64,000 bases of DNA from a virus (IMGVR_UViG_3300050821_009413:81490-145489), one strand, 5' to 3'. Positions 684 through 57,129 are shown, numbered from the stretch's first letter. Numbers and translations: made by a program. The notes: a model not told the origin generated them from the letters alone.

Positions 684-767
684 TGGTACCCGTGGTGGGA
701 TTCGAACCCACATGGCTGTTGCCGACCGGACTTAAATCGGTTGCGTATGCCGTTCCGCCACACGGGC
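684..767 (-). tRNA. tRNA with long variable arm (anticodon tentatively UAA, Leu-like)
   Basis: Minus-strand reading gives GCCCGTG...GGGTTCGAATCCC...CACGGGT-ACCA. It has a 7-bp acceptor stem, a canonical T-arm, an encoded CCA and an extra arm of about 84 nt. Folded by eye only. Confidence 0.55.
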
Positions 768-782
768 GTATCATGAACTTAG

Positions 783-832
783 GGAACGGCCATTAAGATG
801 GCGACACCCCAGGGCTGGACCGCCGTTCCCGC
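783..832. repeat. GC-hairpin repeat copy (opposite orientation to the others)
   Basis: GGGAACGGC...ATGGCGACACCCCAGGG...GCCGTTCCC is an inverted repeat. On the other strand the loop reads GGGGTGTCGCC. Confidence 0.5.
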
Positions 833-837
833 TAACG

Positions 838-911
838 TACCCGGCGGGAGATTCGAACTCCCAACCACCACCTTTTGAGGATGGTCGCTCTGCCTGTTGG
901 CGCACCCGGGC
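838..911 (-). tRNA. tRNA-like element (imperfect acceptor stem; possibly degenerate)
   Basis: A canonical GGGAG-TTCGAAT-CTCCC T-arm and an anticodon-arm-like hairpin are present. The acceptor stem shows two or more mismatches in my manual fold. Confidence 0.35.
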
Positions 912-912
912 G

Positions 913-986
913 TACTCCGAGCGAGAGTCGAACTCGCAGACACCAGCACCTCGAGCTGACGGCTTTGCCTGTTTGCCTATCGGAGC
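913..986 (-). tRNA. tRNA (isotype uncertain)
   Basis: Acceptor GCTCCGA/TCGGAGT with a G1-U72 wobble, T-arm GCGAG-TTCGACT-CTCGC, about 74 nt with no encoded CCA. The D-arm GGCAAACAGGCAAAGCC is shared with the next tRNA. Confidence 0.5.
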
Positions 987-987
987 G

Positions 988-1063
988 TACCTCGCCCGAG
1001 AGTCGAACTCGGAAACATCAGAATCTGAATCTGACGGCTTTGCCATGGTTTGCCTAGCGAGGC
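988..1063 (-). tRNA. tRNA (anticodon tentatively CAG)
   Basis: Acceptor GCCTCGC/GCGAGGT, anticodon stem TCAGA/TCTGA with loop TTCAGAT, T-arm CCGAG-TTCGACT-CTCGG. Only 1 nt separates it from the previous tRNA. Confidence 0.5.
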
Positions 1064-2038
1064 TTGTTGCGGAAGGTAGAGGTGTCGATCCCCCGGGATG
1101 ATTACCGCTTGGATGCTTTCAAGGCAACCTGGCTGGCCGCAGCCGTACCTTCCATCGCGGAAGGTGGAGGTCTTGATCCCCATCACACTTTCGTGGACGC
1201 TGGCATTAGCAGTACCGCCCGAACACCCGATCGGTTCACCTTCCCTGACTATGTAAGTCGGGAGGTACTCGATCGTAAGAATAGGTGCAATCGTTGGGCG
1301 GTCATGCCTATATGATACGGCAGTGACGTACCCGAACACAACTACTGTCTATCTGTCGTCTTCGTCTACTATCGTGACGGTTCCGTCTGGCATCGGTACG
1401 TTTTACTTGGCTAGCAGCGGGACCGGTGTCGCCATGGTGTATCTGCTGAGTCAGGGGCATTCGGTTATGCCGGGCGGTGTGTTGACAGCTACAGTTACGG
1501 GATTCCAATGAGCGCCCCGGGCGGCGGGTACGCCAAAGTGTCGACTACCTGGGTGGGTGGTGGTGCCTCCGGTGGGGTGGTGTCCATCCAGGTTCCGGCT
1601 GCGCAGCTGGGAAGCGGCCCGGGGAGTTGGTGCCTGAGTCCGGTAACCGTAACCGTTTCAAGGTTGCCGGGAGGCATATTGACGTTGTCGGCGTGCTCCC
1701 GGGAGCCTATATGAAGGCACGGTTGTTCGGCGGGCCGCGTAATGGTAAAGAGATCGATTACGCCGGCGACTCCACTGATTATGCCCACCCAGAGATCCTG
1801 TCGACCGGGGCTGGGTGGGACCAGATATTGAGGTGGCACACCTATGTGCCGATCAATAGGTTGCCGTTGCTGGCGCATGATTGCCGAGGCGGCTGCCCAT
1901 ACCCGGATGTTCCCGGTCACACGTTGGCGGTGGATAACGACTGCGACCCTCCGGTGCACGTGGTTGAGTATGCGTTGCGTAGTTGGGTGCGCAGGACGAT
2001 GGGCGGAGGCTTTATGGCTGCGTATGCGTGGTGCGCGA

Positions 2039-8781: not shown

Positions 8782-9260
8782 TGTTCGACGCTCTACACCG
8801 CGCCTACAAAGCATTCACATCAGGTGTCGTTCCAGCACACGACGTGACCGAGTCGCATCGATACACCGTCCATTACCCGGACCACCAGCCGAGACAGTCG
8901 GATCCACACTATAAGGATTTCGAGGCGTACCGGCGACGCACTAAGGCGACCGCAAAATGCTCAGTCGGTGAAGCGCGAGGGGACTTCACCGACTGCCAAC
9001 CCGGCCCCAACTCCTGGCCCACCGGCCTCGAACTACACCATGACCACGTCGAATTCGCCCTAGAAAATGCTGTAGACCTGGCGTTATTAGACAAGGTTTA
9101 CCCCGGTGTGTCGAACCCTGACGAGGTCGGAGCGTGGGTAGAGTCCGCTGACAACCTCGTATGGCTCTGCACGTTCCATCACCGCGGCCACGGCGGCGTA
9201 CATGTAGCAAGCAGCTCTGATTACGAGGCGGAACGCTTCATTAAGGGGCTGATCAGCTGA
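8781..9260 (+). CDS. HNH endonuclease
   Basis: LHHDHVEFALENAVDL...NLVWLCTFHHRGHGGVH is an HNH/His-Me finger. Its start overlaps the upstream stop (ATGA) and its stop overlaps the lysA start. Confidence 0.7.
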   Translation: MFDALHRAYKAFTSGVVPAHDVTESHRYTVHYPDHQPRQSDPHYKDFEAYRRRTKATAKCSVGEARGDFTDCQPGPNSWPTGLELHHDHVEFALENAVDLALLDKVYPGVSNPDEVGAWVESADNLVWLCTFHHRGHGGVHVASSSDYEAERFIKGLIS

Positions 9261-23919: not shown

Positions 23920-24384
23920 TTAACTATCCCGGGGTGACCTGGCGGGAAAGCTCATGTTAATGTCTTCGTCTGGTGTCCACGCGCAGTCGGTGTCGTGCCC
24001 GTCCTCGAGCGTGCAGGTATACGGAACACCGTGCTCGTCGGTGCGCGCCTTCCAGCACAGGAACGGCTCCTGAGGCTGCCAGTGGATCCGCGCCGCCACC
24101 AGCTGCGGGCGGTCCGGGCGACCCAACTCCTCGTACCGTTTCAGAAGGAACTTGTACATGCTGCGGGCCGCTTCCTCATCCCGGTACTCGAACACCTTCA
24201 CCGGTGTTCCGGCCTCGCCCCAGCGGACACCCCACTTGATGCCGCCGGCGTACCCGCTCACAGCGTCTCCGGCGTCAGGAGCATGGTGTTCTTTCCGAGG
24301 TTGGTGGCGTCGCAGTCCAAACCCAGGAACCTGGTGCCGCCCATGAACCGCTCGTAGCAGCGGTGATAGTGCCCGTGAGCCCAC
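23920..24384 (-). CDS. hypothetical protein (start probably internal)
   Basis: Overlaps the downstream gene by 126 bp if the longest ORF is used. Confidence 0.35.
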   Translation of the reverse strand: MGSRALSPLLRAVHGRHQVPGFGLRRHQPRKEHHAPDAGDAVSGYAGGIKWGVRWGEAGTPVKVFEYRDEEAARSMYKFLLKRYEELGRPDRPQLVAARIHWQPQEPFLCWKARTDEHGVPYTCTLEDGHDTDCAWTPDEDINMSFPARSPRDS

Positions 24385-25064
24385 AGCTTCGGACAGGTGG
24401 CGTCGTAGACGCGGCGCACTTTGTCGCGGTGCACCGACGCCCCGTACAGCATGTGGTCCGGGAATTCACCGCGCACCTGAGTCTTGAAGTCGGCTCCCAC
24501 GCCAGGAATGTCAACCCCGGTCGGGCAGTCGTGAGCGACCACCACATCAACCGGAACGCCATCATCGCGGGACGCGTACTCGATGTCGTTCAACGACAAC
24601 TCCTCACCGGCCCACCAGCCCACGTTCTCGGTACGCATGTACCTGTCCACCGAGAACGCACCACCCAACGCCATGAACCGTTTACCCCACCACGTCCACC
24701 GGAACCCGCGCGGCAAATGAACCGTCATGGGACGGTCGGGGGAGTTGAACTCGGCGGTACGTGAGTGATCCTCATGGTTCCCGTCCACCCAATAGATCGG
24801 GATCTCCCATTCCTGTGCTTCTTGCTCCACGCCCTGCAAGTACCGGTCGGTCGCCTCGCTGTCAACCCAGAACCCGAAATCCCCCAGGTGCAGGATCGCA
24901 TTCGCACCAGACTTGTACGCATATTGAAATACGGATTTCATCCAGGGCAGGTTTCCGTGGGTATCCCCTACCGCCAAAACAATGTCCGGATGTTGAAGTA
25001 GATCGGGGACGGCGGACGCGGTGTGGGTGCCACGAGGGGCCTGGCCGTCCCCGAAGTCTGTCAT
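24258..25064 (-). CDS. calcineurin-like metallophosphoesterase
   Basis: VGDTHGN...HLGDFGFW...GNHEDH...AHDCP...GHYHR are MPE motifs I-V. The annotated N-terminal 20 codons are a GC-hairpin repeat, so the true start may be downstream. Confidence 0.7.
   Translation of the reverse strand: MTDFGDGQAPRGTHTASAVPDLLQHPDIVLAVGDTHGNLPWMKSVFQYAYKSGANAILHLGDFGFWVDSEATDRYLQGVEQEAQEWEIPIYWVDGNHEDHSRTAEFNSPDRPMTVHLPRGFRWTWWGKRFMALGGAFSVDRYMRTENVGWWAGEELSLNDIEYASRDDGVPVDVVVAHDCPTGVDIPGVGADFKTQVRGEFPDHMLYGASVHRDKVRRVYDATCPKLWAHGHYHRCYERFMGGTRFLGLDCDATNLGKNTMLLTPETL
25004..25053. repeat. GC-hairpin repeat copy
   Basis: GGGGACGGCGG...GGGTGCCACG...GGCCGTCCCC. Confidence 0.5.
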
Positions 25065-25623: not shown

Positions 25624-26082
25624 TTATCTACCCATCGTGTAGTGCGGGTCGTCTGGCGGGTAGATATCAACCCGCACACCGTCCAGGTCGGCGAGCGCTT
25701 CGCGGATGAGTGGCTCAACCTCGGCCCACTTCAAACCACCCAGCCCGCAACCCAGCGGGGGGATCGCGACCGATTCCAGCCGCAGATCGTAGAGGACCTG
25801 CCGCAAATCCTGCAGCCCTTCGATGATGTAACTGATCTCCGAAGGATGTCTCCAATCATCCTTGGTGGGGAAGTTGATCAGCCACCGCCCCTCATTTCGG
25901 TCGAACCAAGTCCACATCTTCCCGGTCCGCACCTGCCCGTGCGCGCACGCGCCCTGATAGGCCTCGTTCATCACCGGGTACCGCAGCCGGAACTGCGCCG
26001 CCAACCCGCCGCCCATGTTCCCGACACAGTTGATCGTGTTGATGATCGCGTCGCAGTCGGAATCAAAAATGTTATCCGGCAC
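25624..26082 (-). CDS. macrodomain protein of the TARG1/DarG-like subfamily (ADP-ribose/ADP-ribosyl-DNA hydrolase candidate)
   Basis: AIINTINCVGNMGGGLAAQF...INFPTKDDWRHPS...IPPLGCGLGGLKWAEVE...DIYPP parallels TARG1/DarG macrodomain blocks: a CxxxMGAGIAxxF-like block, a catalytic Lys region and GCGLDRLxWxxV. Confidence 0.7.
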   Translation of the reverse strand: MPDNIFDSDCDAIINTINCVGNMGGGLAAQFRLRYPVMNEAYQGACAHGQVRTGKMWTWFDRNEGRWLINFPTKDDWRHPSEISYIIEGLQDLRQVLYDLRLESVAIPPLGCGLGGLKWAEVEPLIREALADLDGVRVDIYPPDDPHYTMGR

Positions 26083-26202
26083 CGAACACCTCCTTCAAAT
26101 CTTCCTCGGACAGCGACATTGAGATCTCCAATTCGATCTCATCCCGAGTCAGATTAACCCGGGTGCCGCCGAAAAGCACCGAAAAACTTCTAGGATCGCT
26201 GC

Positions 26203-26433
26203 TCATCCCAGGCTCCTTTTTCCTTGTTTGATCAGGCGTATCTGCCGCGAGATGAACATCGCATCACGCGGATGCTTCATCCACATCCACGTCTCGCGCA
26301 TCTGGTAGCCCCAAAATCCTGGTCTCGTCACGGTCCACCAGATTTTCCATCCCGGACCGCAGTACGGCTTCATTCTTCTTCGGGGTCCTGTTGGACTGTG
26401 ATGCCGAAGTGTTGGGCGTTGCGGTATGCCCAC
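26203..26433 (-). CDS. hypothetical small protein
   Basis: 76 aa. Confidence 0.3.
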   Translation of the reverse strand: MGIPQRPTLRHHSPTGPRRRMKPYCGPGWKIWWTVTRPGFWGYQMRETWMWMKHPRDAMFISRQIRLIKQGKRSLG

Positions 26434-26573: not shown

Positions 26574-26885
26574 TTAACTCTCCTTATTTTCGGGATTTGT
26601 AATTCCTCCCCCGGCCCCGCCCAAAACATTTCCGTTACCAGCAGCGTTGGCGGCGGCCTCTTCTTTGGCGTTGAGTCTGGCAATCATTCCGTCGCGGCTG
26701 TATCGCACGCTGACGTAGGCATATTCCGGTACTTCCACGATCTCGATGCCGGGCAGCGACAACAGCACATCGGCAACCCGGTCGACCCAGCGATCCATGA
26801 GATCGTCTTGACTTGCCGTCGTGGGACTGGGGGCCTCTTTTCGCAAAACTTCGGCGAGGCGTGCGCGAAGGTCGGTCATGCCCAT
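26574..26885 (-). CDS. small paralog-family protein (MGMTDLRARLAE start)
   Basis: First of three tandem paralogs. Confidence 0.45.
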   Translation of the reverse strand: MGMTDLRARLAEVLRKEAPSPTTASQDDLMDRWVDRVADVLLSLPGIEIVEVPEYAYVSVRYSRDGMIARLNAKEEAAANAAGNGNVLGGAGGGITNPENKES

Positions 26886-27182
26886 GGCAGTTCGAAGTCC
26901 TTGCTGGTGTCGACGGTGATACGTTCTCGGATGTCGAATTTGGACAGCAGCACACCGGCAACATGCCCAGGCCAGCCGCCATTATCAAAGTCGTAGGCTT
27001 CGGGATCGAATCCGCAGCGACATTTAGGCCAGCAGGGATGGTTGGGGTCAGTGCGTCGTGCGTGTTCCCGTAGTGCGTCGGCGAGGCGTGCGCGAAGGTC
27101 GGTCATGCCCATGGCAGTTCGAAGTCCTTGCTGGTGTCGACGGTGATACGTTCTCGGATGTCGAATTTGGACAACAGCACAT
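26851..27182. repeat. about 105-bp direct repeat, two copies 227 bp apart (26851-26955 and 27078-27182)
   Basis: TCGGCGAGGCGTGCGCGAAGGTCGGTCATGCCCATGGCAGTTCGAAGTCC...GGACA(G/A)CAGCACA is identical apart from 1-2 mismatches. Confidence 0.7.
26876..27112 (-). CDS. small paralog-family protein
   Basis: Starts MGMTDLRARLAD and ends GVLLSKFDIRERITVDTSKDFELPWA. Confidence 0.45.
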   Translation of the reverse strand: MGMTDLRARLADALREHARRTDPNHPCWPKCRCGFDPEAYDFDNGGWPGHVAGVLLSKFDIRERITVDTSKDFELPWA

Positions 27183-27387
27183 CGGCGAGCTGCCCTGCCG
27201 ACATGGACATCACCGCTGCTACACGCTTGGTGAGTTCATCGTCGGTGTCGGCGAAAACGATCCGCGCTGTCTCGGTGAACAGTACGTCTGCGATGCGTTC
27301 GCGAATATCACTCATGAGCGAGCCTGCACGCTTCACAATAACCACGCTCCACCGACACAGCAGCCCACAAAGGCTGCCCACAATCAC
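27103..27387 (-). CDS. small paralog-family protein
   Basis: Ends with the identical 26-aa tail ...LLSKFDIRERITVDTSKDFELPWA. Confidence 0.45.
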   Translation of the reverse strand: MIVGSLCGLLCRWSVVIVKRAGSLMSDIRERIADVLFTETARIVFADTDDELTKRVAAVMSMSAGQLADVLLSKFDIRERITVDTSKDFELPWA

Positions 27388-36722: not shown

Positions 36723-37652
36723 TTAGTGCTGCCCGCCCTGGGGGACCACATAGGTTGGCTGATACGGGTTGAGGCCCTGCTTCACCGCCAACGCTTTTAG
36801 ATACGCGTCGATACTGCCGTACCCGTTGATCTCAGCCTGCTGCTGCAACGCTTTCTGCTGCGCCAGCTTCGTTTGAGCTTCAGCAGCGGCAACCTCAGCA
36901 TCCGCCTTCGCCCTGTCGGCGTTAGCTTCAGCGACGCCCTGGGCTTGCAAAGCCTGCGCACGCTGCACAGCAGCCTGCTGCGCCTCGATGGCGTTCTTCA
37001 AGTCGGGATTAACCGGAGTCGGCTTCAGCACAGTCACCTGGAAGTTCGAGAAGTACTCTGTGCCGTTGGTGCGGGCCTTAGACGCCAGCGGCAGCTGCTT
37101 GTCGATCTCCGTACGGAACTCGGTGCGAACCTCCTCGCTGTTCCAGATCTCCTGCCACGGATACTTCTGAGCCACACCGTTGAGCGTGTCCTGGAGAGGC
37201 TGGCCGATGACGTGATTGATGAGCGCTTTCCATCCGTCGCTCTCAGAGCCGTCGTCGTTGAGCGTCCCGTTGTATCCGGCGGCGAACTCTGAATAAAACT
37301 TCTTCAGCTTGTCGCAGTCCTGGGTCAGATCGAACGTCACCGACACTGGAACATCCATCTCCGCCGGGGCTTTAGCTGATGCGACAACCACGTACGGTCC
37401 CCTGTTGGGTTTCGCGTTGGGGTCGTTGCTGGCGTTCCACGCGATCTGGCGTGCGGGGAACTTGAACACCTCGTTGAAAGCTTCGTTCTTCGTCTCCGAA
37501 GGTTTGATGCACTCGGTGAGATTATGGTCGGCACCGGGGAACATCGACCCGTTCTGGACCACGGCCTGCTCAGCTGGACCCATGGCGTGATACGCGCATC
37601 CTGACAGACTGATCGCCGCGGCTGCGGCGATCGTCACTATCTTGGTTTTCAT
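36723..37652 (-). CDS. lipoprotein with Ala/Gln-rich coiled-coil C-terminus
   Basis: LSGC is a lipobox after an N-terminal signal sequence. The C-terminal AIEAQQAAVQRAQALQAQGVAEANADRAKADAEVAAAEAQ is coiled-coil-like (SPFH-like tail). Confidence 0.5.
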   Translation of the reverse strand: MKTKIVTIAAAAAISLSGCAYHAMGPAEQAVVQNGSMFPGADHNLTECIKPSETKNEAFNEVFKFPARQIAWNASNDPNAKPNRGPYVVVASAKAPAEMDVPVSVTFDLTQDCDKLKKFYSEFAAGYNGTLNDDGSESDGWKALINHVIGQPLQDTLNGVAQKYPWQEIWNSEEVRTEFRTEIDKQLPLASKARTNGTEYFSNFQVTVLKPTPVNPDLKNAIEAQQAAVQRAQALQAQGVAEANADRAKADAEVAAAEAQTKLAQQKALQQQAEINGYGSIDAYLKALAVKQGLNPYQPTYVVPQGGQH

Positions 37653-37972
37653 TTACTCTCTTTCGATTGAGGGGTAATCGTCCCCGGGTTGAGGATCGAC
37701 TGGGTGGTTCTCTCGATCAACTTCTCTGTGTATTCGTCGTCTTCGCGACGCAGCAACTTACGGGCGTGAGCGCGACGCTCACTCCTTGATAGCCACAGCT
37801 CCGGCTCATGTAAACCAGCTATACGGCGCTTGAGTCTGAAACGATCCACTGTCGCGTAGATCGTCCAGGAAATCCAGAGCACGACAACGATCATTAGTAC
37901 GAGACGGATCATCAGAACTCCTTGAGGTTGTTGATCATGTAGGTGAACACTGGTTGATGCGCGGTGGCGCAC
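37649..37972 (-). CDS. small membrane protein
   Basis: 107 aa with an N-terminal TM helix and an Arg-rich tail. Confidence 0.35.
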   Translation of the reverse strand: MRHRASTSVHLHDQQPQGVLMIRLVLMIVVVLWISWTIYATVDRFRLKRRIAGLHEPELWLSRSERRAHARKLLRREDDEYTEKLIERTTQSILNPGTITPQSKESK

Positions 37973-38769
37973 CCGACGCGGTTATGTCCAGGGTGTGTAT
38001 CGGTGGTGTAGATGTATCGGTAGTGGTCGCGGAGGTTCGGTGCGTTGCCGGAGAAAATGCCGTGCGTGATCCACAAGCCGAGTTGTTCTTTCGGCAGTCC
38101 GGTGGCTTGGGCGAGTCCCATGAATGTGCCGCCGCCGTCGCAAATGTCGTCCACTACTAGGTATTTTCCGGATTTGGGTAGTTTGTCGACCATTTTGATT
38201 CCGTTGATGCGTCCGGTTTCTTCGTCGCGGTCTTTGTCTGCCCGGTACATGTCGACGCCGAGGGCGGTCGCGGTTGTGGCTGCTCGTTCGACTGCGCCTT
38301 TGTCCGGCGCGATCACGGCGTGGTAGCCGTCGTAGCCGGCGCTGTTTTTTAGCGCTCGCTGCACCAGCGGAACTGGTGACAACTCGGTCAGCTTCCGTAG
38401 GTGGCGGTGAACGATCGGGCTGTGCGCATCAATCCCGATGACTTGTTGCGGGTTCATGGAGTTGATCAGTTGGGAGTAGGTGGCCACCCCGACGGGCTGC
38501 CCGGCCATCGGTCGGTCCGACCTGGCTGCCGGCAGGTACGGCAGGAACAGCATGAACGGTGCCTGCCGTTGGTGTGCCACGTCGGCGAACAACGCTGCCT
38601 GCACCAGGTCGTCGGCGGATCGGAACCGCACATCAGCGATCCACACCGCCGCGGGGTCGCGCACATCAGCCAGGTTGCGTAGGTGCCACTCGCCGCCCGG
38701 ATACTGAAACGGCTCCGCAGCACCATGAATGTAGTCGCCCGGAAGTTTCACCGAAAAATGTGTGGTCAC
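37912..38769 (-). CDS. ribose-phosphate pyrophosphokinase (Prs/PRPP synthetase) family protein; alternatively an Adps-type ADP-ribose pyrophosphate synthetase
   Basis: LPYLPAARSDR parallels Prs IPYFGYARQDR. VIAPDKGAVERA parallels VVSPDIGGVVRA. The PRPP-binding LVVDDICDGGGT parallels VLVDDMIDTGGT. ITHGIFSGNA parallels ATHPIFSGNA. Confidence 0.8.
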   Translation of the reverse strand: MTTHFSVKLPGDYIHGAAEPFQYPGGEWHLRNLADVRDPAAVWIADVRFRSADDLVQAALFADVAHQRQAPFMLFLPYLPAARSDRPMAGQPVGVATYSQLINSMNPQQVIGIDAHSPIVHRHLRKLTELSPVPLVQRALKNSAGYDGYHAVIAPDKGAVERAATTATALGVDMYRADKDRDEETGRINGIKMVDKLPKSGKYLVVDDICDGGGTFMGLAQATGLPKEQLGLWITHGIFSGNAPNLRDHYRYIYTTDTHPGHNRVGCATAHQPVFTYMINNLKEF

Positions 38770-39164
38770 AGCAGCATCAGCTCCCCGGTTATAGGATCGA
38801 GCGCCTCATCTGTATCGGGTCCGATGGCGCAGCACGTGATTGTTGGAACCCCGTTGAATTCGGTGAGTCCGGAGTCGGTGACCAGGAACTCGATCAGGCC
38901 AGCGTCTTTGGCGGCCTGATGAATGGCCAGTAGCTTCTCTTCGCTGTCCGCGCGGACACAGATCTTCTTGAAAGGGCCAGCTAGCCACTCTTCGATCTTG
39001 CGTTCATGGTCGCGGCGAATCTGGTCGTAAGGATCGGAGATCTCGGTGAGATACGGCAGCACCGCACCCAGCGACGCGTGTGCGGCCTGGGCGCACATTT
39101 TTCCTTTACGCATGCCAAGGTCGCTCCGCATCACAATGATTTGCTTAATATCTTCACCCCTCAT
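38766..39164 (-). CDS. peptidyl-tRNA hydrolase, PTH2 family (start uncertain)
   Basis: IVMRSDLGMRKGKMCAQAAHASLGA parallels the PTH2 motif VVRTDLKMGKGKIAAQCSHAALG. The core is about 125 aa. Confidence 0.65.
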   Translation of the reverse strand: MRGEDIKQIIVMRSDLGMRKGKMCAQAAHASLGAVLPYLTEISDPYDQIRRDHERKIEEWLAGPFKKICVRADSEEKLLAIHQAAKDAGLIEFLVTDSGLTEFNGVPTITCCAIGPDTDEALDPITGELMLL

Positions 39165-39360
39165 TCCAAAAGTCTTTACGGTTCGCGAGTCTTCGTGCCC
39201 GTTCTTTGCATGACTCAACCTCGTATGGTTCCATTCCTTCGGCGATCTGTTCGGCCATGTCCGCGGCTTCTGCCGCCGCCTGGTCATCGGGGGCGACGAT
39301 CCCCAAATACAACGCAAGGGTTAGGGCGTCGTGTTGTGCATCGTTGACTGGTTCATTCAT
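39154..39360 (-). CDS. hypothetical acidic small protein
   Basis: 68 aa. Confidence 0.3.
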   Translation of the reverse strand: MNEPVNDAQHDALTLALYLGIVAPDDQAAAEAADMAEQIAEGMEPYEVESCKERARRLANRKDFWNEG

Positions 39361-46410: not shown

Positions 46411-47328
46411 CTACGCCGATCGGGCGCGGCGACGCGGAACCGCAACAGTAACCGCGGTTTCAGCTGCAGGCTTCCTGCCCTTAGCCGGGTGCTTACGCTT
46501 ACTGGAAGCCTTACCGGCGACCATTTCTGCCGTCTTCTCCAGCTTCGCCAGCAGATCGCCCACCTCTTCGGCGGCTGCGGCTTCCTCACGTGGGGTCATC
46601 GGAACGCCGGTCACTTTCGACTCGATCAGTTCCTCAACCCTCGCCGCGTAGGTGTCGACGTGCGCGTCTTCCTCGAAGGAGGCGGTCATGTCGTCCACGA
46701 TGCCGCCCAGGATCTTCACGTACTGCCTACTTGGTGTGACTTCGCGCCGTAACGACTCGAAATCGGCGTTACGCAGATCTTCTGGCCACATCAAGTTCTG
46801 CACGACCAGCACTTTGTTGCCGCGGACCGTTTCGGGCCGCAAAGCCGCTAAGTGTGTTTTGCTGCGCAGCGTATACTGGATGATCCCGGATTTGCCTTTC
46901 TCTTCCAGCACGGCCAGCAGTGTGGCGTACGCTTCCTCGGTCTGCCGGGGGCTGGGGCTGGACAGGTCAGGCTCGAGAAAGTAGCTCTTCTCTGAGAACA
47001 GAGGGTTGATGAGAGCGGTTTCAACGAAATGCTGCACGTCGAGGGTTCTGCCGCAATCCACCTGAACCTGCTCCAGCTCCTCATCTGTCAGCAGGATCGT
47101 TTCGCCGTCGCGTACCACGCCGCGGGTGGTTTCGCCTCGGCAGCTTGCTCCGCAGTCCTCGCAGATGTACGGGGCTTTGATCCGTGACTGGGTGCCGTCG
47201 TCGTGGACGTGGAAACTGTTGAATTCCACGCCCCGGTCGCCGGATGTTGCGTACATTTTGACTGGGCAGCTGACCAGTCCGAGGCTGATCGCGGTGTTCG
47301 CTATCGAACGTGTTGGTGTTGGTGCCAT
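46411..47328 (-). CDS. ku: Ku-like DNA end-binding protein
   Basis: The N-terminus NTAISLGLVSCPVKMYATSGDRGVEFNSFH is a typical bacterial Ku core, about 300 aa, with a basic Lys/Arg C-terminal tail. Confidence 0.8.
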   Translation of the reverse strand: MAPTPTRSIANTAISLGLVSCPVKMYATSGDRGVEFNSFHVHDDGTQSRIKAPYICEDCGASCRGETTRGVVRDGETILLTDEELEQVQVDCGRTLDVQHFVETALINPLFSEKSYFLEPDLSSPSPRQTEEAYATLLAVLEEKGKSGIIQYTLRSKTHLAALRPETVRGNKVLVVQNLMWPEDLRNADFESLRREVTPSRQYVKILGGIVDDMTASFEEDAHVDTYAARVEELIESKVTGVPMTPREEAAAAEEVGDLLAKLEKTAEMVAGKASSKRKHPAKGRKPAAETAVTVAVPRRRARSA

Positions 47329-50170: not shown

Positions 50171-50245
50171 TGCGCGCTGAGCGCATCATCCAGCGGGTGT
50201 TGCAAGATGCAACACCCGCTGGGGTTGTGCTCAGATCATTCAGCG
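50171..50245. repeat. composite nested-palindrome element, copy C
   Basis: GCGCTGAGCGCATCATCCAGCGGGTGTTGCAAGATGCAACACCCGCTGGGGTTGTGCTCAG; the inner 32 bp form a perfect inverted repeat. Confidence 0.55.
50199..50213. promoter_or_regulatory. GTTGCA-N3-TGCAAC palindrome upstream of gene 49711-50142
   Basis: gttgcaagatgcaac. Confidence 0.4.
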
Positions 50246-51354
50246 GGGATGGCTTCGACCGCTAGCTGCGCGGCCCGGATCCGTTCGTCGCTTTCGTGTT
50301 TCAGTTCGGCTAGTTGCCTCGCGAGTTCCTCGACGTCGAGTTCGCCCGAGTTGTGTCGCCACTTCTCGTACTCGGCGGCGTCCTCCCGCGCCCAACGTTC
50401 GGCGTCAGGGTCGGTGGCTTCGGCTTCGAGCCGGCCTTCCCACGCGTCTCGTTCGGCCCGGTCAGGTACCCAGCACTGGCAGGTCTCGACGGTTTCGGTG
50501 CAGTCCATGCACAGTTCGCATCGGTCGCAGAATCCGCGTGAGTCGATCAGTCCCTCTTCGCACCAATCGCAAATGTTCCAGCCGCCTTCTTTCTTGTCGT
50601 CGCCGACCGCCATTTCGTCGTCGTACGGGTCGTTGCCGTCGTCCGCGGTGCCTTTGCCGGTTTTTCTGTTGCCGATAATGATCGGCCAGTCGTCATCGTC
50701 CCAGCCGCTGGCACCGTAACCGTAGCCGTACATGCCGATACCGGAGGATGCGGACCTGGAATAGCGGTAGTAGGCGCGCTTGTAGTCACCGTTTGAATGC
50801 CAAATCCCCGTTTCAGGGTCCCACTGCCCCAGCGGCTCGTTGATGATGTACGCCGAGTACTCATACTGCGGGGCGACGGTGAGGATGACCAGCTTGTTGC
50901 CGGTGCCGCAGAACTGCGTCAACGCTTTCTGCACCCCGGCCTTGTCGAGGTTTTTGAATTGGGTCGGCAGGATTTCGTCGGCGAAAACCCGCGTGTCCGA
51001 GCGATCGTCGGCCTTGGACCACGGCTGCGCGGACGGTTGGGTGAACACCCCGTTGTGCCCGACTACGGTCAGCTCGCAGTCGCCCACCACGAACGGGTGA
51101 ACGTTGTCGAGTTTGATGCTGCCGTGCGTGGCCCACCTCGAGTGGAACAACGCGGGGCCGAGCATGTTCTCTTCCCGCGCGGCCTTGAAATCCCTGATCG
51201 CTGTTTCTATCCACAGCGATTTGCCTGTGATGATTTTTGTTCCGCAGTCAGCGACGATCGCCCAGCCGTGACCGTCTGGGTTGTTTCTACCGCCGTTGGT
51301 GAGGCCTTTTTCGTCCACCGCAGTGTTCGGTGGCAGATAACTTAACATGCACAT
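50236..51354 (-). CDS. Ntn-hydrolase / class-II glutamine amidotransferase-like protein with C-terminal Cys-rich zinc module
   Basis: It starts MCMLSY with a Cys2 nucleophile. The module HGWAI...HSRWATHG...NVHPF is present. The C-terminus carries CDWCEEGLIDSRGFCDRCELCMDCTETVETCQCW. Confidence 0.65.
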   Translation of the reverse strand: MCMLSYLPPNTAVDEKGLTNGGRNNPDGHGWAIVADCGTKIITGKSLWIETAIRDFKAAREENMLGPALFHSRWATHGSIKLDNVHPFVVGDCELTVVGHNGVFTQPSAQPWSKADDRSDTRVFADEILPTQFKNLDKAGVQKALTQFCGTGNKLVILTVAPQYEYSAYIINEPLGQWDPETGIWHSNGDYKRAYYRYSRSASSGIGMYGYGYGASGWDDDDWPIIIGNRKTGKGTADDGNDPYDDEMAVGDDKKEGGWNICDWCEEGLIDSRGFCDRCELCMDCTETVETCQCWVPDRAERDAWEGRLEAEATDPDAERWAREDAAEYEKWRHNSGELDVEELARQLAELKHESDERIRAAQLAVEAIPAE

Positions 51355-51424
51355 ATTTGTGTGCTCCTTCCCGGTACTAGATGTACCGCCGTAAAAAAGA
51401 ATGTTTTGTTGATGTATGCGCCTT

Positions 51425-52825
51425 TTAGCCGAGCGTTACCCAGTTCGTGGCCCCAGCGGCAGTGAGTCGCTCGCGTTCACCGTTGCCGTCCACGATGTAG
51501 TAGTAGTTGCCAGCCAAGTTGAACCGAATCTCGTCCGAACGGCGGCGGCGGGGCCGAGGCTCCGGCGGGGACCACCTGTTCAGCGGCTCCTTCTTACCGG
51601 TCAACAACTGCGGAGGCGCGAGCCGCATAATCTCGGTGTACAAGTGCTTGTAGTTACGCCGTTGCACCCAGTCAGTGAAATGCCGCCACGTCAACGCGTT
51701 GCGGCGCAACACGTCAGCGGTCGTCATGTTCTCGGTGTAGCGCACCGACGCGTCAGCGAACTCCAACGCCGCCATGAACTCCGGGTACTTAAGTGTGGCT
51801 TTGAAGAACCGCAACTCGAACGTCCGTTCGTTGTTGCAGTTCACCGCAACATAACGGGAGTCGTTGTAGCGGTCACCAACATCGGTGGCTTTGCGCTTCA
51901 ACTCACCAGACACCGGTTTGCGGAACGCCGCGTAGCGTTCCGAGGTGCGCCGCGCCAACAGTTCCAACTCCCGGGCGTGCCGGTACATGAACAGCAGCCA
52001 CAGCATTTGATGCGACTTCGACTGCTTCCCGTCGTGGATGAACGCGTTGCGGGAAACGTGGACATGCAAACCGTAATGGTCGTCCACCCGGCAACGGACA
52101 CGGCGCAGCGAGGCCAGCAGTTCCTCGAACGGGTACTGGCGGGCGAACTGCAACGTCATCGGATGCGTCACAATCTCGGCACCGGAGATGGACCCGTCTT
52201 CCTTGAGGTAGAGGTGGGTCTCGTCGGCGTCAACGGTGCGTGTTGTTTCGGCGATGATCTGGCCGCGGCGTCCGCCGACTTCCAGTTCGACGCCGAGCAG
52301 CGCTTCAGCCGGGTAGTTCCCTTTCGGTTTGAAGTGCCGCGGTCGGTAGTTCCATGCGTGGATACCATAGTTGCCTGCCGCGTAGGCGCGGTCACGCCGA
52401 CTTGAACTGTCGGCGCAAGGCCCGCACGTGGCGCAGTTGTAGGTGTCGCATTCCTCGCAGTGAGTGCATTCGTCGCGGTTGTACGCGCCGCCGCAATTGT
52501 GGCAGATCACTTCAGGGCGTCGTGGCACAGTGCGTCTCCTTTCTTCTGTTCGTAAGCGCGTTCCCAGCAGTATTGCTGCCGCGTTGGTGAGACGGTTAGG
52601 GGTACTTATGACCGCCGCAGTTTCATCTGCCAGTGCAGATGTCCAGCACGTGCATTCGATGCTTGCTTCGCCGCAGTCGTTGCAGGTGTTACAGTTGTTG
52701 CAGTAGCCTGCGGGGATAATCTCGCCCATCCCGCAGTACGCGCAGCAATTAGCATCTGCCACCGGCTCCCACGGCCAGCCCCAGATGCTTCTGCTTGAGC
52801 GCGGCGTTATCCCTATCTCTGGCAT
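51425..52825 (-). CDS. amidoligase (glutamine-synthetase/GCS2-like, Amidoligase_2-type) with N-terminal Cys-rich zinc module
   Basis: It shares HLYLKEDGSISGAEIVTHPMTLQFARQYPF...GLHVHVSRNAF...LWLLFMYRH...FELRFFKATL with two paralogs. The start was chosen at 52825 after an AAGGAG RBS. Confidence 0.6.
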   Translation of the reverse strand: MPEIGITPRSSRSIWGWPWEPVADANCCAYCGMGEIIPAGYCNNCNTCNDCGEASIECTCWTSALADETAAVISTPNRLTNAAAILLGTRLRTEERRRTVPRRPEVICHNCGGAYNRDECTHCEECDTYNCATCGPCADSSSRRDRAYAAGNYGIHAWNYRPRHFKPKGNYPAEALLGVELEVGGRRGQIIAETTRTVDADETHLYLKEDGSISGAEIVTHPMTLQFARQYPFEELLASLRRVRCRVDDHYGLHVHVSRNAFIHDGKQSKSHQMLWLLFMYRHARELELLARRTSERYAAFRKPVSGELKRKATDVGDRYNDSRYVAVNCNNERTFELRFFKATLKYPEFMAALEFADASVRYTENMTTADVLRRNALTWRHFTDWVQRRNYKHLYTEIMRLAPPQLLTGKKEPLNRWSPPEPRPRRRRSDEIRFNLAGNYYYIVDGNGERERLTAAGATNWVTLG

Positions 52826-53125
52826 AGCACTTAGTTTCTCCTTTCCCCTGGTCGGTCGGATCAATGTTGAACCGGGAGATTGTTCCTCCTGGAAGCGCCG
52901 GAACGAAGACGGACACAACACGTCGCACCGCTCTGACGCTTTCAGCAGGACCGGGCATTACTGCCCGGCCTCACCGGATCGCTTCAGTTACACAACGATC
53001 AGGAACACAGCTGCAACCATGACGACGACGATCGCCGCCAAGATTGACCAGCCGATAAGTTTCCCGAGTTGATCTATCGGGTTGTCAGTTCCCTGCGCCA
53101 TACCCGTTCTCCTTCCCTGTTGTTG

Positions 53126-54049
53126 TTAGGCGGGGAGTTCCACGCTGTGCGCGGCTTTCATCGCCTCGTAAGCGCGTTCCCAGCAGTCGCAGTCGTCGTT
53201 CTGGAGCTTGCCGCAGTCCTGGCAGGTTTCGCAGAATTTGCAGTAACCCATCTTGTTGACCTCGCCCATCCCGCAGAACGCGCAACGCCAATCCAGTTCA
53301 TCGGCGCTGCTGCCGATGAACACCTCCGCGGATTCCTCCGCCGATTTGGCCACATTGGCACCCATCATGCCGTCTTCCTGCTTGATCCACGTTTTCGTCG
53401 CCGAGTCATAAACATGAACCCCGTTCCTCGCCGAGACCGTCGCCTTAGATTTCGACTGGTTACGCAGCCACCGCGGCAACGCCTCCCGATAATCGGAGTT
53501 CGAATGCCACAAACCGGTTTCTTGGTCCCACTCGCCCAGTGACGCGTTAATAAGGTACGCGCTGGACTGGTAACGCGGGTCGACGGTGAGGATGGCCAGC
53601 TTGTTGCCCAAACCGCACCACTTCGTCAACTCCTTTTGGACACTAATTTTGTCCAGGTTCGCGAACCTGCCGGGCAGCACTTCGTCGGCGAACTTCCTGG
53701 TGTCTGAACGGTCATCACCCTTCAATGGCTGCGCCTCAGGTTTAGTGAGGATACCGTTGTGCGCGACCACCGTTTTGTGGCTCCCGCCGACGATGAACGG
53801 ATGAACGTTGCTGACGCTGACGCTGCCGTGCGTGGCCAGCCGCGAATGGAACAACGCCGCACCATCATATTTTCGGCGGGCTTTGATGAAACTCTCCAAC
53901 GCAACCTCAACTTTGAGGTCGCGGCCCATGATTATCATCTCTTTGTGGGCGATGGCCCAGCCGGACCCGTGTGGATTGGAGATGCCGCCGTTCAGCAGGC
54001 CGTCTTCGTCCACATCGTGGCCCGGCGGAAGGTAACTCAACATACACAT
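53126..54049 (-). CDS. Ntn-hydrolase / class-II glutamine amidotransferase-like protein (paralog) with C-terminal Cys-rich zinc module
   Basis: MCMLSYLPPGHD...HGSGWAIA...HSRLATHG closely parallels 50236-51354. The C-terminus carries CAFCGMGEVNKMGYCKFCETCQDCGKLQNDDCDCW. Confidence 0.65.
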   Translation of the reverse strand: MCMLSYLPPGHDVDEDGLLNGGISNPHGSGWAIAHKEMIIMGRDLKVEVALESFIKARRKYDGAALFHSRLATHGSVSVSNVHPFIVGGSHKTVVAHNGILTKPEAQPLKGDDRSDTRKFADEVLPGRFANLDKISVQKELTKWCGLGNKLAILTVDPRYQSSAYLINASLGEWDQETGLWHSNSDYREALPRWLRNQSKSKATVSARNGVHVYDSATKTWIKQEDGMMGANVAKSAEESAEVFIGSSADELDWRCAFCGMGEVNKMGYCKFCETCQDCGKLQNDDCDCWERAYEAMKAAHSVELPA

Positions 54050-54080
54050 ATAGGTGCCTCCGTTCGTTTTGTTCTAGGTG

Positions 54081-55010
54081 TCAGGATTGTTTGAGGATTT
54101 CGCGGTAAAGGTGCGTGTAGTTGTGCTTGAGCACCCAATCGGTGAACTGGTCCCACCCCAGCGCGCGGCCCTTCAAAACGTCCACAGCTGACAGGTTGCT
54201 GGTGTATTTCACCGACGCGTCGGCGAACTCCAGAGCCGCATAAAATTCCTGCTCATCCAGTGTGGCTTTGAAGAAGCGAAGCTCAAACGTTTCCCGGTTC
54301 TGGCAGTTCACCGCCGTGTATCGGGGCGTGAGGTTCCTGTCGCCTTTCGCTTGTTCCTTCAGCACACCCTTGCGGGGTTTCCGGAACGACGCCCACTCTT
54401 GCGATGACCTGCGGGCCAGCTTTTCGAGTTGTTCACTGTTTCGGTACATGAACAGCAGCCACATCATTTGATGGGCATCGGATTGCTGTTTGTGCGTTCG
54501 GTAAGACTTTTTACGGAACGCGTCACGCGCCACATGAATATGCAGCCCATAGTTGTCGTACACGCTGGACCCTGAAAGTCTCAGGTTTTTCAGCAGTTTC
54601 GAGAACGGGTACTGCCGCGCGTATTCCAGCGTCATCGGGTGCGTAACGATCTCCACACCGCTGATGCTGCCGTCGTGCTTCATGTAGAGATGGTCTTCAT
54701 GGGCGTCCACCAGGTGCACCGCGTCGACTATCTGGTCGGCCAACCCGTAGACTTCCAGCTCCACACCCATCATCGTTTGAGCTGTATCGCCCTTAAATAG
54801 CAGGTGTGGCCGGTAGTCGTAACTGTGGACGGAGCCATGTTCGGCGTCCGAGCAGCAGCAGCAGCTTTCGCAGTGCCCGTTGTCGCACATACCGAAGCCT
54901 TCTACCCAGCCCCTGCAGTCTTCGCAGTGCAGTCTGCCGCAGTCGGCGCAGCGTTGCATGTAATCGCGGGTGTCTTCGTAACCGCAGACCCGGCACTGTA
55001 CCATCGGCAT
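54081..55010 (-). CDS. amidoligase paralog with N-terminal Cys-rich region
   Basis: HLYMKHDGSISGVEIVTHPMTLEYARQYPF...GLHIHVARDAFRK...MWLLFMYRNSEQLEKLARR...FELRFFKATL. Confidence 0.6.
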   Translation of the reverse strand: MPMVQCRVCGYEDTRDYMQRCADCGRLHCEDCRGWVEGFGMCDNGHCESCCCCSDAEHGSVHSYDYRPHLLFKGDTAQTMMGVELEVYGLADQIVDAVHLVDAHEDHLYMKHDGSISGVEIVTHPMTLEYARQYPFSKLLKNLRLSGSSVYDNYGLHIHVARDAFRKKSYRTHKQQSDAHQMMWLLFMYRNSEQLEKLARRSSQEWASFRKPRKGVLKEQAKGDRNLTPRYTAVNCQNRETFELRFFKATLDEQEFYAALEFADASVKYTSNLSAVDVLKGRALGWDQFTDWVLKHNYTHLYREILKQS

Positions 55011-55142
55011 AAGCTGAACCCTCCTTCCTTTTTGTTCACCAATTGCCGCCCAAAAGGGTTTGGGCGGGGCGACGCTCGGGCGACACCATGAGCAGCACCG
55101 ACCCTTTCGGGCCGGTGCTGCCGCGTGCTGGCGCTCAGCATT

Positions 55143-55157
55143 GTTGCAAGATGCAAC
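55143..55157. promoter_or_regulatory. GTTGCA-N3-TGCAAC palindrome upstream of amidoligase 54081-55010
   Basis: gttgcaagatgcaac. Confidence 0.4.
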
Positions 55158-55159
55158 AA

Positions 55160-56271
55160 CTAGTCATCGACGCAGCGTTTCAGGATTTCCGCGTGCAACA
55201 TCGGGTAGTCGTTGTCCGCGGCCCACTGAGTGAACACATCCCACGACAACGCCGCGCCCTTCAACACATCCGCAGACGACAGGTTGCGGGTGTATTTCAC
55301 CGACGCGTCGGCGAACTCCAGCGCCGCATAAAACTGCGACTTCCACAACGTCGACTTGAAGAACCGCAACTCGAACGTGTTCGAGTTCAAGCAGTTAACC
55401 GCAACATACCGTTCGCGGCCACGGTCACCTTTCGCCTTGTTCTTCAACTCGCCCGGCGCTGGTTTGCGGAACGATCCCCAACTGTCCGACACCCGCCGCG
55501 CCAACTTTTCTAGCTGCGTACTGTTTCGGTACATGAACAGCAGCCACAACATTTGATGCACATCGGACTCCTGCTTACGTCCGCGGCGCGCACCATTCTT
55601 GCGGAACGCGTCACGCGCCACATGGATATGCAGCCCATACCCGGACGACACCCGGCACCCGGCGCTACGCAAACCAGCCAGCATCGGCTGGAACGGGTAC
55701 TGCCGCGCGTATTCCAGCGTCATCGGGTGCGTCACAATCTCCACACCAGAAATGGAGCCGTCCTCTTTCATGTAGAGGTGGTCCTCGCTGGGATCGATGC
55801 TGTGAACCACGGGCACGATGCTGCTTTGGTTGCCGCCCACTTCCAGCTCGACGCCCATCATCGTTTGGGACCGGTCGCCTTTGAACACCAGTTCCGGACG
55901 GTAGCTGGCGTAACGGATAGCGCCGCGCTCGTCGTAATAGTCGCTGTCGTCTTCGCAACAATCGCAGCAGTCGCTGCAGTGATACTCGTCGCATCCGCTC
56001 ATCCCACAGCAGTAATACTCGCAGCAGGAGTCGCAGTACGACAGGTCGTCACGCCAGCCGCGGTGCCCACAGTTCTGGCAGTCGGCCCGCTCATCGTCAC
56101 ACGATTCGCAGTACCCGTCGCCGCTGATACCGCAGAGGCTACGGTTGTGGCAGACGCTGTCGCCGCAACTGTGGCAGCTCACCAACTCGTCAGGGTCAAC
56201 ATATTCGAGGCACGTTTGGCAGCGTTCTAGCAGCACTTCTTCTTCGTCGTCCGCCAAAACAATAGGCATAG
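55160..56271 (-). CDS. amidoligase paralog with extremely Cys-rich N-terminal region
   Basis: The same conserved core is present. The N-terminal 120 aa hold about 35 Cys. The start was chosen at 56271 after an AAGGAA RBS. Confidence 0.6.
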
Positions 56272-56303
56272 GGGTTCCTTTCATTTTGTTCCGGAAATAT
56301 GGC

Positions 56304-56318
56304 GTTGCATCTTGCAAC
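56304..56318. promoter_or_regulatory. GTTGCA-N3-TGCAAC palindrome 33 bp upstream of amidoligase 55160-56271
   Basis: gttgcatcttgcaac. Confidence 0.4.
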
Positions 56319-56594
56319 GCGGTGCCGCGTCCCGAGCGACACCACCGGCAGGCACCAGAGAACACCTGATGCCGCCGAGTTGTGCTCGGAAAACGGGGGT
56401 TAGCCGGCGGCCAGCAGGCCGTTATCGGACGCGTCGTCCACCATCACATCGAAGAACAGGTCATCGTCGGGATACGTCATCTCAGCCCAACCGAGGAAGG
56501 GGATGACTTCGAGGTTCTCCCGTTCAACGGCAGCGTTAATACCAACACGTGTGTTCGCCATGTTTTGTTGCCTTTCCAGTGTTTTGTCGATTCT

Positions 56595-56609
56595 GTTGCA
56601 ACATGCAAC
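56595..56609. promoter_or_regulatory. GTTGCA-N3-TGCAAC palindrome
   Basis: gttgcaacatgcaac. Confidence 0.35.
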
Positions 56610-56730
56610 ACCTGTTTCCGTTTCATGTTTGAAACAGGCTTTGTTGAAGTGGGCATATTCCCACTATCTACAATAGTAACATAGTCAAGTCCACTAGTCA
56701 ATGGTCACGATTAAATCAGGTTAAAACACC

Positions 56731-57129
56731 TCACTTTCCCGCCGCGAACTCCGCATTCAACTCAACAACCTTCTCATTAAGACGCCCCTCCATCTCAGCC
56801 AACGTCAACTCCACCCGCTCCGGAACACGATGCGGCCAAATCTCATCACGAAACTCCGCCGCCAACCGCATCCGCAAATTCAACGCATCCAAACCATCCC
56901 CAGCATCCACAGGAACCTCCTCCCACAAAAACTGGACAAGCGCCTCATCCCGGGCACGCACCGCATCCAACCCCAGCCACACCGGATTCACCCGCTCGGC
57001 AGCCCGCTCAATCGGCGACAACTCAGCCATCTCAGTCCTCCTCCCATCCGGGGATACGTTCGATCTCAGGTATGCCCATTTCCTCCCATAACGGCAGGAT
57101 CGAAGGGTTGTCGTCGCAAGCTGCCACAA
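56731..57129 (-). CDS. hypothetical protein
   Basis: 132 aa, helical. Confidence 0.4.
   Translation of the reverse strand: MWQLATTTLRSCRYGRKWAYLRSNVSPDGRRTEMAELSPIERAAERVNPVWLGLDAVRARDEALVQFLWEEVPVDAGDGLDALNLRMRLAAEFRDEIWPHRVPERVELTLAEMEGRLNEKVVELNAEFAAGK

Follow-up and report, generated by a model that had tools for sequence, protein, structure and literature searches.

The macrodomain of DarG, the antitoxin of the DarTG2 toxin-antitoxin (TA) system, suffices on its own to neutralise the DarT toxin (PMC5179494). In DarG of Thermus aquaticus (Taq DarG), the importance of K80 and N22 was shown by mutagenesis and Trp83 was proposed to stack on thymine (PMC5179494, Jankevicius et al.). Two phage proteins are known to counteract such systems. 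AdfM (anti-DarT factor macro), the product of phiKZ gp104, is a DarG2-like macrodomain of a Pseudomonas phage that removes DarT2-added ADP-ribose (ADPR) from DNA (PMC13309987, Cell Rep 2026); it relieves the toxicity of DarT2, and the phage requires it to grow on hosts with DarTG2 (PMC13309987). The NADAR protein AdfN counters DarTG1 (PMC11825919). Macrodomains also occur in NARP1, whose NAD+ reconstitution enzymes are Adps (Prs-like, acting first) and Namat (Nampt-like, acting second) (Osterman et al.). In the NARP1-AP variant, the macrodomain phosphatase Adpp is encoded between Adps and Namat and turns ADPR-1''-phosphate (ADPR-1''P), the product of NAD+ phosphorolysis by RES-domain proteins, into ADPR for NARP1 (bioRxiv 10.64898/2026.01.28.702374). 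Here we describe a macrodomain protein of 152 amino acids (aa) encoded in 64,000 nucleotides (nt) of viral DNA, IMGVR_UViG_3300050821_009413:81490-145489, hereafter the window; loci and contigs used for comparison carry L numbers. We establish its enzyme family, its fold, its conserved catalytic residues, its orphan status, its recurrent linkage to NARP1 and a probable host genus. With a probability of about one in two, this orphan DarG2-type macrodomain would reverse the ADP-ribosylation of thymidine by DarT2, as AdfM does, and NARP1 could use the ADPR set free; ADP-ribosylated thymidine is assigned as the substrate by analogy.

Family, fold and catalytic residues

The gene, its start signal and the open reading frame (ORF) preceding it are the following:

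25624..26082, minus strand: predicted DarG2-type stand-alone macrodomain gene (orphan antitoxin-like ADP-ribosylglycohydrolase), 152 aa, GTG start
26089..26096 (plus-strand coordinates), minus strand: strong Shine-Dalgarno sequence, GAAGGAGG, which precedes the GTG by 6 nt, as seen in the sequence itself
26072..26206, minus strand: 44-aa upstream ORF, no family match, also called on L178

The initial annotation had proposed a 152-aa macrodomain ORF with three conserved blocks, and the translation bears this out: it holds NTINCVGNMGGG, INFPTKDDW and PPLGCGLGGLKWAEV, and it matches Pfam Macro (1.5e-14) and PHROG 335 (1.4e-39). The same gene was found by an independent gene caller on L178, a metagenomic contig that is 100% identical. 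The upstream ORF overlaps the macrodomain start by 11 nt, and translational coupling of the two is suggested. The GC content at third codon positions (0.79) is like that of the neighbouring genes. Scanning 22-30 kb for promoters and terminators gave counts equal to the shuffle expectation and hence no information on operon structure.

An exhaustive HMMER search with the protein retrieved 9229 homologues at E<1e-3, which, with the Pfam and PHROG matches, places the gene well outside chance. Among sequences in the PDB, the best matches were Taq DarG (1.3e-38) and DarG of Mycobacterium tuberculosis (6.9e-38), followed by Thermosipho DarTG, Poa1p (1.7e-6) and TARG1 (4.5e-5). The identity to the macrodomains of the T. 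aquaticus and M. tuberculosis proteins was 47-48% by alignment. The PADLOC hidden Markov model (HMM) of DarG matched at 7.4e-61 (204 bits) over profile positions 7-147 of 329, corresponding to the macrodomain half only, and matched AdfM more weakly (4.4e-39, 133 bits). In a neighbour-joining (NJ) tree of 212 sequences with 100 bootstraps, the clade that contains the protein has 31 members and a bootstrap value of 64, and it is the only part of the tree that is resolved. With HMMs specific to subfamilies, the window protein scored 198 bits against TA-linked DarG and 54 bits against Adpp, and each of the 31 members of the clade favoured the DarG model, also where the gene lies within a NARP1 operon.

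The AlphaFold2 model, built on 47 homologues, reached a predicted local distance difference test score of 96. The comparison of such a model with DarG had been proposed in the initial annotation, and Foldseek superposed it on the DarG macrodomains of Thermus and M. tuberculosis (5M3E, 5M3I and 5M31) with template modelling (TM) scores of 0.89-0.91, root mean square deviations of 1.0-1.6 A and 45-46% identity, compared with a TM score of 0.78 and 21% identity for TARG1. Human TARG1/OARD1 (4J5Q/4J5S) belongs to the same macrodomain branch and has a similar pocket and a catalytic lysine in a TK motif. However, it shares only 20-21% identity with the window protein, carries an alanine where the latter has the putative thymine-stacking tryptophan, and acts on Glu/Asp-linked protein ADP-ribose and on O-acetyl-ADP-ribose. 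Sequence and model thus place the protein with DarG-type rather than TARG1-type macrodomains. Of the joint TARG1/DarG assignment made at first, the DarG half is retained (E values of 1e-38, 47-48% identity, TM score of 0.9) and the TARG1 half is not (4.5e-5, 21%, 0.78). Neither did the protein cluster with MacroD/OARD enzymes devoid of the lysine: DarG matched best and the lysine is present.

This lysine, noticed from the start as the candidate catalytic residue of INFPTKDDW, is K74, the equivalent of K80 in Taq DarG. The mapping of the other Taq DarG residues showed that N22 (N18 here), W83 (W77), T79 (T73) and Q34 (Q30) are all kept, and that the loop glycines G117/G119/G121 correspond to G111/G113/G115. 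K74, N18, W77, T73 and these three glycines are conserved in 30 or 31 of the 31 clade members, Trp77 being invariant. Three positions differ between Taq DarG and the window protein, namely K29 (G25 here), H82 (D76) and N120 (L114).

Orphan status and relatives

In the exhaustive search, the protein was interleaved with DarG proteins of 320-390 aa with an N-terminal macrodomain (45-53% identity), and three of these match the PADLOC model of DarG over its full length (about 1e-115). Among species-representative bacterial genomes, the best matches shared at most 53% identity with the window protein, and about 85% of them were 340-390-aa DarG proteins encoded after an ORF of about 210-230 aa. In Mycobacterium sp. 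ST-F2 (L102), the ORF upstream of DarG matched Pfam DarT (PF14487) at 2e-54. A DarT HMM was built from 53 such upstream ORFs, this one being the one confirmed by Pfam. The model found no DarT in the six-frame translation of the 64-kb window (best E value, 3.8). The window protein also lacks the C-terminal DarT-binding domain of full DarG, which has about 340-390 aa. Given that both the toxin and this domain are missing, the phage gene is, as judged from its sequence, a toxin-less antitoxin fragment.

All 31 clade proteins are stand-alone, and their contigs are phage-like or metagenomic. The contigs of relatives with 61-77% identity are large, resemble actinophage DNA and encode WhiB, DnaE, RecA, a portal protein and PE-PPE proteins. 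Stand-alone macrodomains of this type are found in cultured phages as well. One example is gp266 of Streptomyces phage JustBecause (L179 2977-3432), a free-standing DarG-like macrodomain of 151 aa that has the motif ATKRHW and is also present in about 7 Streptomyces jumbo phages related to this one. It scores 135 bits with the DarG HMM and 30 with the Adpp HMM, and its GenBank label, "ADP-ribosyltransferase", names the opposite activity.

Linkage to NARP1

The window encodes homologues of both NARP1 enzymes:

27709..29295, minus strand: Namat-type (Nampt-like) nicotinamide ADP-ribose transferase; the macrodomain gene follows 1.6 kb downstream in the same orientation
37912..38769, minus strand: Adps-type (Prs-like) enzyme, PHROG 619 (6e-73)

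The best PDB matches of the Namat-type protein were the SpbetaL1 Namat structures 9W5X/9W5W (2e-128), compared with 5e-62 for true Nampt. It keeps the equivalents of R40, R306 and F392, has a methionine in place of the clamp residue Y396, and is 62% identical to mycobacteriophage homologues. The Adps-type protein matched cellular Prs at only 8.5e-14 and is 56% and 50% identical to the Prs-like proteins of phages Rumpelstiltskin and Bromden, respectively, both of which appear with a neighbouring Namat in Table S1 of Osterman et al. By these sequence criteria, the window carries the NARP1 pair. NARP2 (Nampt and Nmnat) was rejected in favour of NARP1, since the Namat structures match far better and a Prs-like Adps is present; the accompanying scan of small ORFs for Nmnat was non-exhaustive. 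The usual form of NARP1 is a two-gene operon, whereas the two genes lie 8.6 kb apart in the window, in the order Adps, a tellurite-resistance-type (Ter) cluster, Namat, about six small ORFs and the macrodomain gene.

The association with NARP1 is tighter in three relatives. In L173, the genes of Adps (9154-10008), the macrodomain (10001-10450) and Namat (10451-11914) overlap or abut. In L004, the order is the same, with one 44-aa ORF interposed, and in L174 the macrodomain gene is directly upstream of a Namat-like gene, with Adps 2 kb off. The slot of Adpp is therefore occupied in these genomes by a DarG-type enzyme, and no second macrodomain, of the Adpp type, was found at the window, L173, L004 or L174 loci. 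The phages of the four loci have little else in common, which argues that the linkage between the macrodomain and NARP1 has been maintained across diverged genomes. In the other five of the nine clade contexts, NARP1 was not seen in the 8-10 kb of flank available, so the macrodomain gene can also stand alone.

A Namat relative (32-54% identity) in the canonical arrangement with Adps is encoded at 26 IMG/VR loci, and this collection contained three Adpp-type macrodomains and none of the DarG type; close relatives of the query are evidently missing from it. In Pseudomonas phage PaP1, we independently found a macrodomain between Adps and Namat, and this phage is in the published table of NARP1-AP systems (bioRxiv 10.64898/2026.01.28.702374).

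The phage and its likely host

Comparison of positions 22-30 kb with 50,697 phage records by megablast gave no match, which indicates a phage without a close cultured relative. Its many small ORFs, an array of five tRNA genes and lysis genes resembling LysA and LysB give the window a phage-like character. Features that bear on its nature and host include the following:

684-1153, minus strand: five tRNA genes in a tight array, Leu(taa), Leu(caa), Leu(gag), Leu(cag) and Ser(tga)
15966-17186, plus strand: PPE-family protein, Pfam PPE (3e-42) with a PPE-SVP C-terminal region
46411-47328, minus strand: Ku, Pfam Ku (1.3e-32)

The PPE protein, the cutinase/PE-PPE-like LysB, Ku, an L5 gp82-like protein and NARP1 genes closest to those of mycobacteriophages indicate that the host is probably a Mycobacterium and the virus an uncultured actinophage. 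PPE proteins are a hallmark of mycobacteria; this gene is of use as a marker of the host and, as phage cargo, is unusual. In L174, a gene with a PE-PPE domain adjoins the macrodomain gene.

The presence of DarTG in mycobacteria, mentioned in the initial annotation, was confirmed: DarTG2 is found in M. tuberculosis (5M3I) and in Mycobacterium sp. ST-F2 (L102). DarTG has been reported to be enriched in Actinobacteria (PMC10482375).

Proposed reversal of DarT2 marks

The closest described counterpart of the window protein is AdfM. Both are DarG2-type macrodomains that phages encode as stand-alone proteins of about 150-160 aa, without a DarT alongside. Shared features are the catalytic asparagine (N23 in phiKZ, N18 here), the lysine and tryptophan of PTK..W and a residue other than lysine at the position of Taq K29. 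The activity expected by analogy is the removal of DarT2-added ADP-ribose from thymidine in single-stranded DNA (ssDNA). The two proteins differ in several respects. They are 36% identical and did not group in the NJ tree, suggesting separate acquisitions, and the window protein is closer to bacterial DarG, as seen in the PADLOC scores. AdfM acts in the phage nucleus of a chimallivirus, and nothing suggests such a structure here. Moreover, AdfM is neutral, whereas the clade of the window protein is acidic and linked to NARP1. The concept of a phage orphan antitoxin directed against DarT is already published, and the window protein is probably a new, independently placed and separately acquired AdfM-like protein. 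With the DarG proteins of DarTG2 (T. aquaticus 5M31/5M3E and M. tuberculosis Rv0060 5M3I), it shares the ADP-ribose pocket and the catalytic lysine. It differs from them in being encoded by a phage, in having neither the DarT-binding domain nor an adjacent DarT, in the replacements K29->G, H82->D and N120->L, and in its strongly negative charge.

The following sequence of events is proposed. During infection, the DarT2 of the host would use NAD+ to ADP-ribosylate thymidines in the ssDNA of the phage. The phage macrodomain would then cleave the bond between thymidine and ribose by means of Lys74, while Asn18 and Trp77 keep the modified base in position. This would restore replicable DNA and free ADP-ribose, which the phage Adps and Namat could combine with the nicotinamide released by DarT to give NAD+. 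The initial annotation had considered an antidote against DarT plausible. The DarG type, the retained lysine, the lack of DarT and a host genus with DarTG2 speak for it, although the idea is no longer novel and the linkage to NARP1 opens a rival explanation.

Several observations weigh against the reversal of DarT2 marks. At the rim of the pocket, the residue corresponding to Taq K29 is glycine in 31/31 clade members, that corresponding to H82 is aspartate in 31/31 and that corresponding to N120 is leucine in 30/31, and a K29E substitution strongly impaired Taq DarG (PMC5179494). Most TA-linked DarG proteins have K, H and N at these positions. Nevertheless, each of the clade variants occurs in some full-length DarG, and AdfM itself has an alanine at the position of K29. 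The net charge over the macrodomain columns of the alignment is also unfavourable: it is -8.7 in the window protein, with a clade median of -4.6, compared with a median of +1.3 in full-length DarG and +0.2 in AdfM (clade versus DarG, Mann-Whitney P = 1e-11, computed on non-independent sequences), while the presumed DNA-binding face of DarG is positively charged (PMC5179494). In L173, the macrodomain gene is translationally packed between those of Adps and Namat, and it stands beside them in L004 and L174; this Adpp-like slot suggests a role in the pathway rather than in DNA repair. Finally, the literature searched gave no demonstration that DarTG restricts mycobacteriophages.

Alternative explanations

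The position within NARP1 loci raises the possibility that the enzyme has the role of Adpp. In this scenario, a serious rival though a less likely one, the DarG-type macrodomain would convert a soluble ADPR derivative, most obviously ADPR-1''P, to ADPR for NARP1. The source of ADPR-1''P would be RES-domain NAD+ phosphorylases (such as aRES or mycobacterial MbcT-like toxins), and the DarG-type enzyme would replace the Poa1p-type Adpp in actinophages. The gene orders described above argue for it, namely the Adps/macrodomain/Namat order in L173 and L004, the position beside a Namat-like gene in L174 and the location 1.6 kb downstream of Namat in the window, as do the maintenance of this linkage in four phages with little else in common and the lack of another, Adpp-type macrodomain at these loci. 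The architecture is the same as that of the NARP1-AP of Vibrio phage Gary, in which Adpp (gp137), a macrodomain of similar size, is encoded inside or next to the NARP1 operon, and the product expected from either reaction, free ADPR, would be a substrate of NARP1. Homologues of aRES are present in Mycobacterium genomes (Table S2, bioRxiv 10.64898/2026.01.28.702374), and the acidic surface speaks against DNA binding. In addition, TARG1-like macrodomains were reported to cleave phosphate-linked ADP-ribose at the ends of nucleic acids (PMC8120803), making the cleavage of a C1''-O-P bond chemically plausible for the class.

The sequence of the enzyme argues in the opposite direction. The preference of the whole clade for the DarG HMM is reversed in Gary Adpp (51 bits, versus 215 bits with the Adpp HMM), to which the window protein is 24% identical. 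Adpp is Poa1p-like and carries the motifs HQxNC and YGQY, while the window protein is DarG-like, with NTxNC and FPTK..W (FPTKDDW), and its Asn15 aligns with His23 of Poa1p. Among the 129 published NARP1-associated macrodomains listed, 103 have YGQY and none has FPTK. Furthermore, an Adpp would be of little use in the five of nine clade contexts with no NARP1 nearby, and the literature examined shows no DarG-type enzyme acting on ADPR-1''P.

We tentatively consider a scenario in which a DarG-type macrodomain originating from a DarTG2 antitoxin was built into the NARP1 operon in a lineage of actinophages in place of the Poa1p-type Adpp, giving an extended pathway not described before; it is possible, if somewhat unlikely, in either of two forms. 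In the first, a loop of three enzymes would undo the action of DarT2 in full: the ADP-ribose that the macrodomain removes from the DNA of the phage would be recombined with nicotinamide into NAD+ by Adps and Namat. This would also stop a futile cycle of DarT and hydrolase from draining NAD+. In the second, the enzyme would be re-specialised, with its acidic surface and its fixed G25, D76 and L114, to dephosphorylate the ADPR-1''P made by mycobacterial RES/MbcT-type NAD+ phosphorylases, which would represent a non-orthologous replacement within NARP1-AP.

A broader eraser is improbable. Such an enzyme would act on other ADP-ribosylated macromolecules, such as proteins or RNA (for example, on uracil), modified by other ADP-ribosyltransferases of host defences or toxins. 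The catalytic machinery resembles that of TARG1 and DarG, and several substrates are described for TARG1-like enzymes (PMC8120803). A 2026 paper on the reversible uracil ADP-ribosylation of RNA mentions DarG, and the acidic surface and the altered rim of the pocket could reflect a different macromolecular substrate. However, sequence and structure are far closer to the thymidine-specific DarG than to macrodomains acting on proteins, the proposed thymine stacker Trp77 is invariant in the clade, and the genomic context implicates no specific alternative transferase.

That the protein is the antitoxin of a phage-borne DarTG module is highly improbable: a complete module does exist in Thermus phage phiMa (gp38-gp39) and full-length DarG is found in about 60% of the related IMG/VR loci, but the lack of DarT effectively rules it out for the window, the 152 aa cover only the macrodomain half of the DarG model and 31/31 clade members are stand-alone. 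In phiMa, a cultured phage (L180 2297-4053), the DarT HMM recognises gp38 (9e-74), and the product of gp39 is a DarG of 357 aa, although the pair is annotated only as "hypothetical" and "ADP-ribose 1-phosphate phosphatase related".

Other phage macrodomains and a NADAR gene

A different motif was observed in the macrodomains of Rhodococcus phage Weasels2 (L009 5980-6435), AlexBoehm (L175 6968-7426) and Vi01 (L177 6938-7543), in which TQFYPG replaces FPTK..W and the catalytic lysine is absent. The macrodomain of Weasels2 scores 120 bits with the DarG HMM and 68 with the Adpp HMM. Those of AlexBoehm, an rV5-like phage, and Vi01 score higher with the Adpp HMM than with the DarG HMM, although neither adjoins NARP1. 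The fold of AdfN, the anti-DarT1 factor, was encountered in L174, where a gene with a NADAR domain (17641-18093, minus strand) lies about 7 kb from the DarG-type macrodomain gene. This phage may carry erasers for the marks of both DarT1 and DarT2. No NADAR was found in the window.

Metallophosphoesterase and other neighbouring genes

Two to three genes downstream of the macrodomain gene, the window encodes a metallophosphoesterase (MPE):

24258-25064, minus strand: calcineurin-like MPE, Pfam Metallophos (2e-11), PHROG 1649

The initial annotation had described the MPE gene as adjacent and suggested that its product further processes the released ADP-ribose. In fact, an ORF for a small membrane protein (25061-25396/25615) and a 48-aa ORF intervene, and the suggested processing found no support. 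The MPE is within 5 kb of the macrodomain gene in two of the nine clade contexts, the window itself and L173 (4.4 kb), and a tblastn search with the window MPE against 88 related loci found none near a macrodomain. Homologues of this MPE occur in 146 Mycobacterium phage records (40-47% identity), and the closest listed examples, from phages of the cluster L and J types, are not among the macrodomain matches. Mycobacteriophage MPEs also have other documented roles (PMC12287305). A partnership between the MPE and the macrodomain was thus rejected, since there is no synteny in relatives and MPEs are widespread among actinophages.

The genes between Namat and Adps, and those just beyond, include the following:

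29378-30013, minus strand: TerD, in the Ter cluster (29378-34987)
31257-32006, minus strand: vWA-TerF-like gene, in the Ter cluster
32053-33393, minus strand: TelA, in the Ter cluster
33899-34987, minus strand: TerC/DUF475, in the Ter cluster
36723-37652, minus strand: SPFH/Band_7 gene, beyond the Ter cluster
38766-39317, minus strand: PTH2-type peptidyl-tRNA hydrolase (6e-30)

A Band_7 gene is near the macrodomain gene in L174 as well. Three consecutive small ORFs on the minus strand (26574-27387) have blocks in common and no family match. MGMTDLRARLA opens both 26574-26885 and 26876-27112, and the last 26 aa, DVLLSKFDIRERITVDTSKDFELPWA, are identical in 26876-27112 and 27103-27387. A small gene seems to have undergone a recent tandem duplication or recombination here.

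Further along, the region 50236-58418 holds an amidoligase-type cluster that may be a module for the modification of peptides or metabolites:

51425-52921 and 54081-55010, minus strand: Amidoligase_2 genes, with a paralogue at 55160-56365
53126-54049, minus strand: class-II glutamine amidotransferase-like gene
57924-58418, minus strand: gamma-glutamyl cyclotransferase-like gene

Implications

If the window protein does reverse DarT2 marks, it would be, as far as the literature searched shows, the first candidate AdfM-like counter-defence found for phages of Mycobacterium-type hosts. DarTG2 is conserved in M. tuberculosis, where the antitoxin is essential, and work on mycobacteriophage therapy is active; as a host-range determinant the gene would then merit attention, and its product would offer those who study DarT a compact DarG-like hydrolase. 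The labels given to phage macrodomains are "phosphatase" for PHROG 335, "Appr-1-p processing" and "ADP-ribosyltransferase"; beneath them are at least two subfamilies with distinct functions, and a simple motif test (FPTK..W versus YGQY/TQFYPG) tells them apart. The presence of a DarG-type macrodomain in a NARP1 operon is the part that a specialist might find surprising. It poses the question of whether phages couple the reversal of ADP-ribosylation to the regeneration of NAD+, or whether a DarG-type active site serves as the ADPR-1''P phosphatase of NARP1-AP.

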